A stretch of 39,207 nucleotides of DNA from Patescibacteria group bacterium UBA4664 (GTDB taxonomy: Bacteria; Patescibacteriota; Saccharimonadia; CAILAD01; BJGX01), in contig CALRCL010000003.1 in NCBI GenBank assembly GCA_943354575.1, positions 1-39,207 of the forward strand. Reading direction: 5' to 3'. The translations under genes were made by a program, and so were the position numbers. The notes below the pieces were generated by a model that saw nothing but the letters and a program-made list of their open reading frames with translations, was not told the origin of the DNA and made no database searches. Below are positions 10,835-12,522 of this stretch, in pieces (the stretch's first letter is position 1; each line of letters begins with the position of its first letter).

Positions 10835-11881
10835 TTAGATCTTTTTTTTTGAGCCGTTGTGTTGGACTTCGCTAGCCTTGGTCTCTGGAGCTTTAGTTTT
10901 TGGAGTATCTTCTGGAGCCTTATTATCTGCAGTACCAATTGCTGACTCGGTTTCGGCAGCTATTTGAGCCTGCTTGATAGCCTCTTTAATGCTAGTTGCA
11001 GCGGTCGCATCCGGAGCTACAGCCTCGATATTGGGCTCTTTAGCAGCAGTTGGAGGCTGAGGGTTGGCGGTTATTGGGTTCGGTTTGTTGTATGGCGCAG
11101 GAGATGATGTAGGCTTGGGAGTATTATTAGATTGCAAAACCCTTACAATCTCTTGCTGTTTGGCGCCAGCTGCTAGCATCTGGGCGGCAACCGTCATAGA
11201 CTTGGCGGTTGTATCTGGGGTAGTAAAGTTGTGGGTGGCAGTAGTAATACCAGTATATAATGCTGTGGCGATCGATTCATCGACCATTCCCTGCTCTAGG
11301 GACTCAAATAGCGATACTAGCATTTCGCAGACTGAGCTAGAGTTTTGATCGATATAATTGACACTACCGTACTCTTCGTTGATGCGATGATAATCGATAT
11401 TAATAAGGTGAAGGCCGTCGAATATAGTTGGGTTTTTTTCGACAATTTTATCGAGTTTTATAATCTGTGGTACGCCTAGCGCAATAACTAAATCGAACTT
11501 AAATGGACCTTGCTCAAAGCTAACATCGCCGGCCTTAAAGTTGCCATTGAGGGGTGTAATCGTGACATCTAGCCTGTCGCCTTCGACATTGTATTTGAGC
11601 TTATCAACCACTACGGAATGCATTGCAACGCTAATTATAAAGTCGCGCACACCCTGGATGTCGTTACTGATAAATTGGGTATCGAAAAGCTCGGCGCTCT
11701 TGGGTAGTGCGTCGGTAATAACAATACTGGCCTGCTTTTGGAGCTTATTTAGTGCTCGCTGGGTAGCGATTGCAGCCGCAAGCTGATCGTTGCTTGGCTC
11801 TCGCCCTGTAACAATCACGATATTGTGAGCTTGCTTAATGAGCTCGCTGGCTTGCTGTTTTGGGGTTAAATCATTTTGCAT
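10835..11881 (-). CDS. DHH/NrnA-family phosphoesterase-like protein with degenerate motifs
   Basis: LINIDYH..N..YG..N, SSVCE, IATALYTGI...T..F; located next to truB as nrnA often is. Motif 1 and DHH are altered; the C-terminal tail is Pro/Ala/Lys-rich. Confidence 0.8.
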   Translation of the reverse strand: MQNDLTPKQQASELIKQAHNIVIVTGREPSNDQLAAAIATQRALNKLQKQASIVITDALPKSAELFDTQFISNDIQGVRDFIISVAMHSVVVDKLKYNVEGDRLDVTITPLNGNFKAGDVSFEQGPFKFDLVIALGVPQIIKLDKIVEKNPTIFDGLHLINIDYHRINEEYGSVNYIDQNSSSVCEMLVSLFESLEQGMVDESIATALYTGITTATHNFTTPDTTAKSMTVAAQMLAAGAKQQEIVRVLQSNNTPKPTSSPAPYNKPNPITANPQPPTAAKEPNIEAVAPDATAATSIKEAIKQAQIAAETESAIGTADNKAPEDTPKTKAPETKASEVQHNGSKKKI

Positions 11882-11928
11882 AATATTTGCGTAGTTATAA
11901 TTATTGTTATCTTCTTAAACAATGGGTT

Positions 11929-11957
11929 ATTATACACGACATAAGCGTTATTGTCAA
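11929..11957 (-). promoter_or_regulatory. Consensus sigma70 promoter of the DHH gene
   Basis: TTGACA (11957-11952), 17 nt spacer, TATAAT (11934-11929). Confidence 0.85.
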
Positions 11958-11979
11958 GGTATAAGAGCCTTCAAGCTCG

Positions 11980-12226
11980 GTGGGGCTACCCCCGCTATAC
12001 TTTCCGCCACAGATCGCTAGTAAATTAGTGAGCTCTGGTGGTCGCCCCAGGGTGGATTCCTGGGGCGTTATTGTTTGGTGACGGCCAGACTTCTCTAGCC
12101 TCACGGAGCTTCCCCGTGATATTGCGGGCGGTTGTTTTACAAGAGTGCCATACTCTTGCCGTTCGAGAGAAGCTTGGGCTGTCGGTCGGGCAGTACCGAC
12201 TGTATGGTACTGGGCTAGCACCCCAC
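11980..12226 (+). ncRNA. Unidentified highly structured RNA candidate (about 250 nt)
   Basis: A long-range closing helix encloses at least five nested hairpins. Most non-Watson-Crick positions are G-U on the + strand. No convincing ORF. Strand is tentative. Confidence 0.55.
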
Positions 12227-12230
12227 ATCC

Positions 12231-12398
12231 TCAATTCTCTCTTCGGAGTCGATGCAAACCATACGCATAGGCAATTGTGATGGTGCCCGCAATTGCTGCT
12301 ACCGCAAACTTAGTCTTGTATGGTGCACTGACCAGCAAGACGTATCCCATGGTGATTATGCAGATCCAAGTCGCCACCTCTAGCAGTCGGAGCTTCAT
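12231..12398 (-). CDS. Small two-TM membrane protein (55 aa)
   Basis: ATG at 12398 with AAAGGAG SD and an extended -10 TGtTATAAT (12443-12435). Sequence MKLRLLEVATWICIITMGYVLLVSAPYKTKFAVAAIAGTITIAYAYGLHRLRREN. Confidence 0.7.
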   Translation of the reverse strand: MKLRLLEVATWICIITMGYVLLVSAPYKTKFAVAAIAGTITIAYAYGLHRLRREN

Positions 12399-12493
12399 TT
12401 TTTCTCCTTTGATGCAAGGTATATTTGCCTCAAAATTATAACATAACCTCAAAATGGTACTTAACAAGTGCGCCTCAATCGTGGCAAATACCC

Positions 12494-12522
12494 TTTACAG
12501 ATGAGGCATTATCAGGTATACT
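12494..12522 (+). promoter_or_regulatory. Putative sigma70 promoter of rpsT
   Basis: TTTACA (12494-99), 17 nt spacer, TATACT (12517-22). Confidence 0.65.

Follow-up and report, generated by a model that had tools for sequence, protein, structure and literature searches.

Extragenic palindromes of the REP/BIME type, as well as other 3′ stem-loops, stabilise upstream bacterial messages, and they are proposed to do so by blocking 3′-to-5′ exonucleases. REP/BIME elements are simple palindromes, of which a genome may contain tens to hundreds. At the 3′ end of MALAT1 and MEN-beta, a protective structured element is followed by a tRNA-like piece that is removed by RNase P. In the preQ1-I, preQ1-II and SAM-II aptamers, a hairpin is followed by an A-rich 3′ linker and by bases that pair into the hairpin loop. 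Conserved motifs in the neighbourhood of hammerhead and twister genes were the starting point for the discovery of several ribozyme classes. According to Perreault et al. (2011; PMC3088659), single genes in bacteria are flanked by hammerheads, which may trim long transcripts to the length of a gene.

The locus that is compared here comes from Patescibacteria group bacterium UBA4664 (GCA_943354575.1). The window, i.e., the whole stretch of DNA that was analysed, covers positions 1–39,207 (39,207 nucleotides) of contig CALRCL010000003.1. Within it, the initial annotation had proposed a free-standing + strand RNA gene of the 6S/SRP type at 11980–12226. The stretch does fold and is conserved, yet most probably it does not represent a free-standing RNA gene. 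It has the appearance of a structured tail on the small membrane-protein gene's own message, carried in a portable one-gene unit.

The stretch forms a GC-rich island in an AT-rich spacer, as had been claimed, with a G+C content of 0.53–0.57 compared to 0.30–0.40 in the flanks. Comparison with shuffled sequences, suggested in the initial annotation, gives z-scores of about −5.6 on both strands: the folding energy is −116.6 kcal/mol on the + strand (z −5.61) and −105.8 kcal/mol on the − strand (z −5.68), and none of 200 shuffles equals it in either case. A scan of the whole 39,207-nt window at the Rfam gathering threshold yields no family, and a permissive scan of 11700–12500 with 4227 models (Rfam 15) yields chance matches only, the best having an E-value of 0.18. 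The stretch is a structured RNA element without an Rfam family. The reported absence of RNase P, SRP, tmRNA and tRNA hallmarks agrees with these searches, which find no match to these RNAs, nor to 6S RNA, inside the stretch. RNase P RNA and tmRNA are rejected as identities, as the genome has its copies elsewhere, on contig C9 (19800–20201, 148.7 bits, and 1894–2292, 126.2 bits, respectively). Codon-level conservation had been put forward as an alternative to an RNA; the single-base indels between 93%-identical copies speak against coding in this region.

The folded stretch is part of 11960–12485, which is a single inserted one-gene unit on the minus strand with a tail of ~250 nt. The unit and its surroundings comprise the following features.

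11960–12485, minus strand: whole insertion unit of ~526 bp, consisting of a promoter, the 55-aa ORF and the structured tail
12435–12443, minus strand: putative promoter of the 55-aa ORF, a promoter-like −10 hexamer after TG (extended −10 type), from reading of the sequence
12231–12411, minus strand: 55-aa hydrophobic ORF from ORF reading, with an SD-like site at 12405–12411, ATG at 12398 and the stop codon at 12231–12233
11929–11957, minus strand: promoter of the DHH gene with 12/12 consensus matches, located in conserved flanking DNA immediately beyond the insertion border

Among congeners the element is lost or decayed. In G005 (locus L051), BLAST and reading of the junctions show a DHH–rpsT spacer without 11960–12485 and with ~85 unrelated bases instead, while G004 (L012) has a decayed copy of the unit with a GNAT gene module inside. 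Direct repeats at the unit borders (16 nt at 81% and 10 nt exact) are not clearly above chance in 681 bases. The 55-aa ORF has two hydrophobic stretches and a strong ribosome-binding site, matches no Pfam family, and is also found in G006 and in metagenome locus L081. Its stop codon lies 4 nt from the folded stretch, the distance given in the initial annotation. A consensus promoter scan, which requires a −35 match, does not list the candidate −10 at 12435–12443. The proposed tie between the RNA and the membrane-peptide gene is correct in that both belong to one insertion unit, but a specific partnership does not follow, since the core of the tail is found behind unrelated ORFs elsewhere.

This core is a motif termed R2. 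On the minus strand, it is composed of a pseudoknotted hairpin, an A-rich linker, GUAAU, a hairpin with a GGNAGCW loop, a third hairpin and GUCAC, in this order. The loop of the first hairpin forms an H-type pseudoknot across the A-rich linker. GUAAU is near-invariant, being GCAAU in the genus of UBA4664, and many other columns are invariant or nearly so. The fold consists of several short hairpins and a pseudoknot and is not rod-like. All helices of R2 are present in UBA4664, on the strand of the ORF, and the elements of the tail are situated as follows.

12181–12226, minus strand: pair of local hairpins that separates the stop codon from the core, the second being GTCGGT/ACCGAC; their loops share GCCC
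12073–12164, minus strand: core motif R2, 87 positions, covariance model match of 85.7 bits
12140–12158, minus strand: pseudoknot stem 1; 4/4 pairs changed on both sides, 97.7% of cells paired
12147–12151, minus strand: loop of stem 1, carrying the 5′ strand of pseudoknot stem 2
12127–12129, minus strand: 3′ strand of pseudoknot stem 2, partner of 12147–12149; 4/4 pairs changed on both sides
12101–12119, minus strand: hairpin with the conserved 7-nt GGNAGCW loop; 96.2% of cells paired, 4/6 pairs changed on both sides
12083–12100, minus strand: third hairpin, with a conserved U-G wobble that would be a C-A mismatch on the plus strand
12043–12067, no strand assigned: G+C-rich 9-bp hairpin, an inverted repeat with a terminator-like score and a T-rich run behind it on the + strand
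12005–12041, no strand assigned: long imperfect hairpin with two polymorphic positions
11980–11995, no strand assigned: segment of the terminal helix, pairing with 12212–12226 only in UBA4664; a small hairpin of its own is also possible

The secondary structure of R2 is well supported by covariation. In an alignment of 24 sequences, 94.4% of the cells are paired and 15 of the 20 pairs are changed on both sides; with 46 sequences (44 distinct) these values are 92.8% and 16 of 20, and in both cases none of 500 shuffles performs equally. Shifting the 3′ partners by 1–3 columns in the larger alignment reduces pairing to 34–55% of the cells. Pseudoknot stem 2, which has three pairs in UBA4664 and four to five in most relatives, was not part of the covariance model and hence had no influence on the fitting of the alignment. 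Two helices of the initial annotation reappear in the core, i.e., TCACGG/CCGTGA (12101–12119), with strong covariation, and CAAGAGT/ACTCTTG (12140–12158), which covaries as well. Two others find no support: the junction helix CTTCTCT/AGAGAAG competes with the covarying local hairpin at 12083–12100, and the bases of GGGCGG/CCGTTC make the pseudoknot. The terminal helix (11980–11995 with 12212–12226) pairs in UBA4664, but it is rejected as a conserved closure, because four related copies (G003a, L076b, L081a and L085b) lack one of the partners. A first alignment of eight sequences had also shown a long-range helix that closes the core, but this helix is not general; the ORF stop abuts stem 1 in most copies.

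The strand of the core is indicated by its wobble pairs. On the minus strand, there are 38 G-U cells against 9 A-C cells, and pair 88–123 in the third hairpin is UG in 23 of the 44 distinct rows, UA in 11, GC in 2, CG in 1 and unpaired in 6. Both the wobble count and the conserved U-G favour the minus strand. R2 is a conserved RNA motif outside Rfam. The novel noncoding element that had been claimed exists as a conserved structured RNA without an Rfam family, but it is read from the minus strand and lies directly 3′ of ORFs, which does not agree with a separate + strand gene.

The hairpins around the core are less clear in this respect. Both hairpins at 12181–12226 are kept in the distant copy L085b by double changes, two of which fall in GTCGGT/ACCGAC, but the support is weak, as it comes from this one independent comparison. 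The hairpins at 12005–12041 and 12043–12067 occur in every close copy with some double changes, the latter being kept in eight close copies. At the polymorphic positions of 12005–12041, A-U/A-C on the minus strand corresponds to A-U/G-U on the plus strand (hand count, including the G004 remnant). Over 12005–12067, a hand count gives about 11 A-C against 2 G-U cells on the minus strand, by which these outer hairpins pair better on the plus strand, although this count rests on two polymorphic sites because the copies are close kin. The + strand wobbles reported in the initial annotation therefore apply to the outer hairpins only and not to the core. Folding energies of the separate segments on both strands give no consistent strand preference for the outer hairpins: for the long hairpin in nine copies, the + strand is lower in two, the minus strand in two, and the rest differ by less than 0.5 kcal/mol.

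R2 is present in 14 of the 60 genomes of the order and in 15 of the 151 of the class, with one to four copies per genome, in Saccharibacteria and a few other Patescibacteria. This patchy and often multi-copy distribution does not support a housekeeping role. A pattern scan of a genome collection retrieved seven stretches, one of which is a chance match in an archaeal bin, while viral contigs contain no match to the motif pattern. Searches of the literature on hammerheads of Saccharibacteria and CPR bacteria and on noncoding RNA covariation in Patescibacteria yielded no description of the motif. Twister ribozymes are located ~390 nt upstream of two weak look-alikes of R2. Regarding expression, three RNA sequencing runs contain a small share of the sequence words; in comparisons with their contigs, one run has no coverage, one covers the rpsT leader only, and one, a metatranscriptome, contains a single 152-nt contig over 12084–12235. 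As these data are contigs, they provide no strand, no transcript ends and no proof of transcription.

The genomic context of the copies is more uniform upstream than downstream. In 41 of the 45 distinct copies, an ORF of at least 35 aa on the same strand stops within 150 nt upstream of R2 (27 at 30 nt or less, 14 at 31–150 nt); two copies have no such ORF and two are at a contig end. One copy has a tmRNA gene, and not an ORF, directly upstream. The ORFs are mutually unrelated and encode lipoproteins, a ~235-aa two-helix membrane protein, cysteine-rich small proteins and others; four of the five examined are without a Pfam family. The units are often organised in rows of small genes (G003, G022, L081, L076 and G234). 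Downstream, a type III hammerhead follows on the same strand within 250 nt in nine of the 45 copies (41–53 bits in relatives), and in one copy (L038) tRNA-Lys follows on the same strand at +6. An ORF of at least 50 aa begins within 130 nt downstream in 21 of the 45.

For the function of R2, the main reading, to which a probability of roughly 0.5 is assigned, is that it defines and protects the 3′ end of the cassette message. The motif would act in cis, on a transcript that ends or is cut just 3′ of it. In relatives the cut may be made by hammerhead self-cleavage or by tRNA processing, and in the UBA4664 unit the end may be set by the two G+C-rich hairpins. The fold of pseudoknot and hairpins would then protect the new 3′ end against 3′-to-5′ exonucleases, thereby giving an acquired gene a defined and stable message at any landing site. 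In favour of a tail acting in cis are the z-scores, the covariation and minus-strand wobbles of the core, the ORFs that precede it with their unrelated cargo, the hammerheads and tRNA-Lys behind it, and the insertion unit itself.

Several observations count against this role. Firstly, UBA4664 has no hammerhead (RF00008, type III) in the stretch or anywhere in its genome and no tRNA 3′ of the core, so that the cut-then-protect step has no visible cutter. Secondly, a plain exonuclease block would not require such an elaborate motif, with its 87 positions and invariant loops, which hints at a specific binding partner. Thirdly, the ORF starts downstream of 21 of the 45 copies would fit a leader as well. 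Lastly, the copy behind a tmRNA gene has no ORF directly upstream, and the outer hairpins at 12005–12067 pair better on the + strand, one of them resembling a + strand terminator.

The downstream ORFs lead to a first alternative, in which the core would serve as a regulatory leader or as a switch between cistrons, a riboswitch-type fold that binds a ligand or protein and controls translation of, or read-through into, the next gene. Small pseudoknot aptamers have the same architecture of a hairpin with an A-rich linker and pairing back into the loop, the loops of the motif and its GUAAU hardly vary, the downstream ORF often has a strong ribosome-binding site and an extra hairpin, and one subfamily lies between ~235-aa and ~340-aa genes at no fewer than nine loci. 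What makes a leader unlikely is that the downstream content varies (hammerhead, tRNA-Lys, promoter or ORF), whereas the upstream ORF is near-constant and abuts the motif. Moreover, DHH, the next gene in UBA4664, has its own 12/12 promoter outside the insertion and is run by congeners without the motif, and the core matches no Rfam riboswitch or ribozyme model in UBA4664 or in 23 related loci.

A second alternative, raised by the outer hairpins, is a short + strand antisense RNA, from about 11972 to 12076, that would be complementary to the end of the message for the membrane peptide and would control this message in the manner of type I toxin-antitoxin systems. It would run convergent with the 55-aa gene and consist of a small 5′ hairpin, the long hairpin and the terminator hairpin. 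This antisense RNA is what survives of the earlier + strand idea. It would account for the terminator-like site with its T-rich tail and for the better + strand pairing in the hand count, and a hydrophobic peptide of 55 aa whose ORF has a strong ribosome-binding site, on an element lost or decayed in congeners, would suit such a system. Nevertheless it is quite doubtful: the promoter scan lists no promoter on the + strand there, a candidate with a −10 ending in G fails the scan rule, and both the inconsistent energies of the nine long hairpins and the close kinship behind the wobble count weaken the strand argument. The same two hairpins also occur behind cores without an upstream membrane ORF (G003c and L076a), and the core, following varied unrelated ORFs, is not specific for a toxin.

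Still less probable is that the element acts as DNA, i.e., as a folded, attC-like recombination site at the cassette boundary for capture and exchange of cassettes. Its position at the 3′ end of single-gene units and rows is what such a site would have, it adjoins tmRNA and tRNA-Lys, both of them genes at which integration classically occurs, congeners differ in whether they have the unit, and pairing in the outer hairpins is better on the strand that does not encode the ORF. However, the H-type pseudoknot, which is crossed by an A-rich strand, and the sense-strand wobbles are marks of selection on RNA, the sequence is conserved as well as the structure, and no recombinase gene was noticed in the loci inspected by reading.

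The presence of hammerheads raises a further alternative, namely that the core is a new class of self-cleaving ribozyme, or its cofactor-binding part, which would work alongside the hammerhead or take its place. A pseudoknot and unpaired bases that hardly vary would be in keeping with this, and a motif with hammerheads within 250 nt in nine of 45 copies, and with the twisters near its two weak look-alikes, recalls how several ribozyme classes were discovered. The chance of this is nonetheless small, since no Rfam ribozyme model matches, copies that have a hammerhead need no second cutter, and no result obtained here speaks for catalysis.

That the stretch would be a diverged housekeeping RNA was considered because SRP RNA (RF00169, RF01854) is undetectable in the stretch at E-values up to 10, in the whole genome and in all 61 relatives, and 6S RNA (RF00013) is found neither in the stretch nor anywhere in the genome; an SRP identity is already refuted by the patchy, multi-copy distribution and the absence of the SRP54 M domain (PF02978), the binder of SRP RNA, from all 61 genomes (controls 14/14), loss or decay in congeners argues against any housekeeping RNA, and 6S RNA is a long rod with a central bubble, so that next to nothing is left of this idea. 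An excerpt of PMC8080830 likewise reports that SRP subunits are absent from many CPR bacteria. For the 39,207-nt window, an attractive but mistaken annotation as the missing SRP or 6S RNA is thereby avoided.

A bolder reading, which must be regarded as quite improbable, would make the core a new class of functional RNA in ultra-small bacteria within a ribozyme-equipped gene-cassette system, either as a new processing module (self-cleaving or ligand-gated) or as a recognition handle on cassette transcripts. If this were true, units excised by hammerhead or tRNA processing could be stabilised and even re-inserted via an RNA intermediate. What bacterial hammerheads do has been debated without a settled answer since 2011, and the Patescibacteria now offer a concrete construct in which this question is testable, with an ORF, the core and a cutter (hammerhead or tRNA) within small portable gene units. 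The R2 model finds the motif in genomes and, given its strong covariation support, could help annotation by serving as the seed of a family and as a marker of accessory-gene units in the genomes of CPR bacteria, whose mobile elements are little known.

Among known systems, the hammerhead-flanked genes of bacteria and prophages, as far as a passage of PMC3088659 describes them, resemble the R2 units in being single genes or short blocks of changing identity. They are bounded by self-cleaving ribozymes, as are, on the downstream side, the nine R2 copies with a type III hammerhead. Unlike these genes, R2 units have an extra 87-position pseudoknotted motif between ORF and ribozyme; the UBA4664 copy has no hammerhead, and the hosts are Patescibacteria, with no prophage genes seen.

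The 3′ end of MALAT1 and MEN-beta is dealt with in PMC10159000. These RNAs share with R2 a structured element directly 5′ of a tRNA or tRNA-like processing site, the parallel being the L038 core 6 nt before tRNA-Lys. By this analogy, a cut at such a site would leave a structured, protected 3′ end. In the eukaryotic RNAs, however, a U-rich/A-rich triple helix buries the 3′ end itself, whereas R2 has an H-type pseudoknot and two hairpins with the 3′ end beyond the fold, and there is no homology.

Integron attC sites are likewise conserved folded elements 3′ of cassettes that are promoter-poor or contain a single gene, and they occur in arrays whose small genes are unrelated. In these sites the structure is conserved and the sequence is not; they function in the form of single-stranded DNA and require an adjoining IntI integrase. 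R2, in contrast, shows sequence conservation and features typical of RNA, and no integrase was noticed in the loci inspected by reading. With the preQ1-I, preQ1-II and SAM-II aptamers, R2 shares its architecture without matching their Rfam models; unlike these aptamers, it lies behind ORFs and not in 5′ leaders, and it has two further hairpins. Lastly, R2 is like REP/BIME elements in being repeated, structured and positioned behind ORFs or between cistrons, but it differs from them in having a pseudoknot and invariant loops, in its one to four copies per genome, and in travelling with accessory gene units.

The stretch at 11980-12226 differs from its surroundings in composition, its G+C content being 0.53-0.57 versus 0.30-0.40 in the A+T-rich spacers on either side. 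It is also strongly folded on both strands: the plus strand reaches -116.6 kcal/mol (z -5.61) and the minus strand -105.8 kcal/mol (z -5.68), with none of 200 dinucleotide shuffles as good in either case. Rfam 15 at the gathering score gave no match in the entire window, and a permissive scan of 11700-12500 returned chance-level rows only (best E 0.18). The initial annotation, which had described the stretch as structured and unrecognised, is thereby borne out, and the neighbouring genes that it had named are all found.

Genes around the structured stretch
DHH-family gene, minus strand, identified with Pfam
small hydrophobic ORF, minus strand, stop codon 4 nt from the structured stretch
rpsT, plus strand, flanking gene

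Codon-level conservation of the overlapping ORFs 11907-12221 and 12025-12234 had been named as something that would count against an RNA gene; copies that are 93% identical differ by two single-base indels, which, together with covariation, argue against these ORFs being genes.

Nine of 61 related genomes gave matches in a DNA search. Within the genus, near-full copies are present in G003 and G006 only and remnants in G004, while the congeners G001, G002 and G005 gave no match in this search. In G003 (contigs C19, C79) and G006 (C11, C15) the locus is broken across contig ends, with several partial or variant copies, which suggests strain heterogeneity or repeats at the site in the sampled populations. 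A second family has only about 80 central bases in common, with visibly compensating changes. Two covariance models were built, R1 and then R2, the latter made from 19 sequences read on the other strand. Among 60 genomes of the order, R1 found this conserved core (window 12073-12164) in 14, with two or three copies in G003, G019, G022 and G025. R2 detected it in 15 of the 151 genomes drawn from the class and in three of 150 others drawn from the phylum, among them G234. A pattern scan of metagenome contigs yielded 23 contigs, on which R2 has 22 strong and two weak matches; two of these contigs are without an R2 match and three carry two or three copies each. The same pattern had no match among viral contigs.

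Elements of the core, minus strand, in order from 12164 to 12073
stem 1, 4-7 pairs, the first element
loop of stem 1, seven or eight bases, its 3' half pairing with the bases after an A-rich linker (UAAAA), an H-type pseudoknot
(C/U)GUAAU, near-invariant (GCAAU in the window's genus), after the pseudoknot
hairpin of six pairs with the loop GGNAGCW, after (C/U)GUAAU
third hairpin, with a variable loop, directly abutting the GGNAGCW hairpin and followed by GUCAC

In an alignment of 24 sequences, 94.4% of the cells are paired and 15 of 20 pairs have changes on both sides; with 46 sequences (44 distinct) the values are 92.8% and 16 of 20. No shuffle was as high in either alignment (0/500 each), a control that overstates significance, the aligned sequences being kin. 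Moving the 3' partners by 1-3 columns in the larger alignment lowers pairing to 34-55% of cells. The pseudoknot helix has both-side changes in all four pairs, with partner words that vary among copies, and it lies outside the covariance model, so that the alignment is unfitted to it. Up to six pair types occur per column, a number that indicates repeated independent changes in the core. G234 belongs to another class of the phylum; its contig C9 has a row of four diverged copies on one strand (loci L092-L094, within ~2.7 kb), which retain the pseudoknot via new partner words and have an altered GUAAU and GGNAGCW loop.

The RNA had initially been assigned to the plus strand, and the core points the other way. 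Its cells on the minus strand comprise 38 G-U versus 9 A-C, and pairing amounts to 94.4% on this strand versus 88.3% when read as the plus strand. In the third hairpin U-G alternates with U-A, for which the plus-strand equivalent is a conserved C-A mismatch. Moreover, type III hammerheads (Rfam) that adjoin the core in relatives are always on the same strand, 3' of the core, and at locus L038 of G019 a tRNA-Lys(UUU) begins 6 nt past the core, again on the same strand. From these wobbles and orientations, the conserved RNA is judged to be read from the minus strand, which is the strand of the small ORF.

Not all helices proposed outside or across the core fared equally well. The terminal helix 11980-11995/12212-12226 does pair in the window's own genome, but it is not general, one partner being missing in four related copies (G003a, L076b, L081a and L085b), and it is taken as a local pairing, perhaps a fortuitous one. 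The proposed CTTCTCT/AGAGAAG and GGGCGG/CCGTTC pairings conflict with the covarying third hairpin and the pseudoknot. Between stop codon and core, two local hairpins (12181-12226) are both kept via double changes in L085b, the second copy at locus L085 and the only distant full-length relative. On the other side of the core (3' on the minus strand), the hairpins 12043-12067 and 12005-12041 are present in all close copies and take the place of the hammerhead seen in others. A hand count of the minus-strand cells in these two gives about 11 A-C versus 2 G-U, A-C there being G-U on the plus strand; the excess traces to two polymorphic positions and two further ones. A plus-strand terminator is scored at the 12043-12067 hairpin, which has a T-rich tail, and per-segment folding energies do not decide between the strands for the outer hairpins. 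For these reasons a short plus-strand antisense RNA over 11972-12076 is kept as a possible rival for this part of the tail.

Same-strand ORF of at least 35 aa upstream of the core, counted over 45 distinct copies (46 matches less a duplicate)
stop at most 30 nt before the model start, 27 of 45
stop 31-150 nt before the model start, 14 of 45
none, 2 of 45
too close to a contig end for a call, 2 of 45

The upstream ORFs are mutually unrelated. Their products include the 55-aa two-helix peptide of the window, lipoproteins, cysteine-rich and acidic small proteins, and a protein of ~235 aa that has two membrane helices at its C-terminus; four of five such ORFs compared with Pfam were without a family and the fifth had a sub-threshold match. 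One of the 27 close cases is really a tmRNA gene running into the core. At L085 (1020-1941), a tmRNA gene leads straight into the R2 core, the two matches overlapping by 8 nt, and ~500 nt further a second unit combines an ORF of 75 aa with a full-length tail resembling that of the window.

Downstream, on the same strand, nine of the 45 copies have a hammerhead core motif within 250 nt and one has a tRNA-Lys, while in 21 the start of an ORF of at least 50 aa lies within 130 nt. Among 60 genomes of the order, 32 have type III hammerheads (57 matches, seven genomes above Rfam's cut-off) versus none of 14 control genomes. Since only six of the 57 adjoin the R2 core, the core is a module of a subset within a larger set of ribozyme-ended units. 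The L038 region (G019:C18, 485-3083) holds a tmRNA gene and then three full tRNA-Lys(UUU) copies ~575 nt apart in a cassette-like row; each has the same pair of hairpins behind it, followed by a small ORF that differs from one copy to the next, and the R2 core separates the first ORF from the first tRNA. Loci L075 (300-356) and L080 (3166-3222) each carry a Twister-P5 ribozyme that scores above cut-off (45.7 bits); ~390 nt downstream of it on that strand, behind a 188-aa ORF, comes a weak R2-like match of 22 bits.

The congener G005 aligns to the window through 11959 and resumes at 12486, with ~85 unrelated bases between, so that 11960-12485 is one insertion unit of ~526 bp.

Features of the insertion unit, 11960-12485
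12435-12443, -10 hexamer preceded by TG, as read from the sequence
Shine-Dalgarno-like site, ATG at 12398, 55-aa ORF and tail, all in the unit

The DHH promoter, with 12/12 consensus matches, lies immediately outside. An imperfect 16-nt direct repeat (13/16; 11955-11970 and 12415-12430) brackets tail and ORF, its copies falling at the insertion's left border and within the 5' leader; it does not clearly exceed what chance would give. The unit in G004 is decayed, with the first codons of the ORF joined to the long hairpin and the core missing. There, at L012 (1527-2608), which corresponds to window 11986-12379, a plus-strand module has replaced most of the unit. The module carries a promoter-like site of its own, an ORF of 30 codons, a hairpin resembling a terminator and a gene for a GNAT acetyltransferase; parts of the long hairpin and the ORF start remain.

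Three metatranscriptome runs share words with the locus; all are contigs, from which strand, ends and transcription are unreadable. The first has no sequence over the locus and the second covers the rpsT leader only. The third has a single 152-nt contig (12084-12235) with G006-type variant bases, spanning the ORF stop codon and the core and giving neither strand nor transcription.

It is established that a conserved minus-strand RNA fold is located behind unrelated ORFs, and that the core travels with accessory single-gene units, frequently with a hammerhead or tRNA just 3'. We consider it to act in cis, as a minus-strand part of a portable gene unit (probability roughly 0.8). As a 3' module of the message, it would stay on a transcript cut just downstream by the hammerhead or by tRNA processing in relatives, whereas the window's own unit would instead terminate at its two G+C-rich hairpins; the remaining pseudoknot and hairpins might then block 3'-to-5' exonucleases. 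This protective mechanism is tentative, and for identity and mechanism stated jointly the chances are about even. The main rival is a regulatory or binding role, since the invariant loops hint at a specific partner; less weight is given to a recombination site acting at the level of DNA and to a new ribozyme.

A diverged SRP RNA merited testing, because SRP RNA is undetected in the window's genome and its relatives. In this genome (607 kb, 32 contigs, 91.7% complete), RNase P RNA and tmRNA are each on a different contig from the window, and neither SRP RNA nor 6S RNA was detected. SRP RNA (RF00169) and the SRP54 M domain (PF02978) were both found in none of 61 genomes (this one and 60 relatives), versus 14 of 14 controls positive for the M domain, which fits the statement of Moreira et al. 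(2021; PMC8080830) that many CPR bacteria are without SRP subunits; the missing M domain, that statement and the patchy, multi-copy occurrence of the element speak against the SRP reading.

The cis element of a portable gene unit is known in kind, as structured elements behind genes and ribozyme-bounded gene units are. Literature searches, with supplementary material beyond their scope, found no description of the motif; both the motif with its pseudoknot and its association with cassette units of Patescibacteria appear undescribed so far, and the new findings here are the core as a conserved element, the pseudoknot and the strand assignment. The proposed logic of cutting downstream of a gene is also that of the MALAT1 3' end, where a tRNA-like piece is cut by RNase P. 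The same logic has been proposed for hammerhead-flanked prophage genes (PMC3088659).
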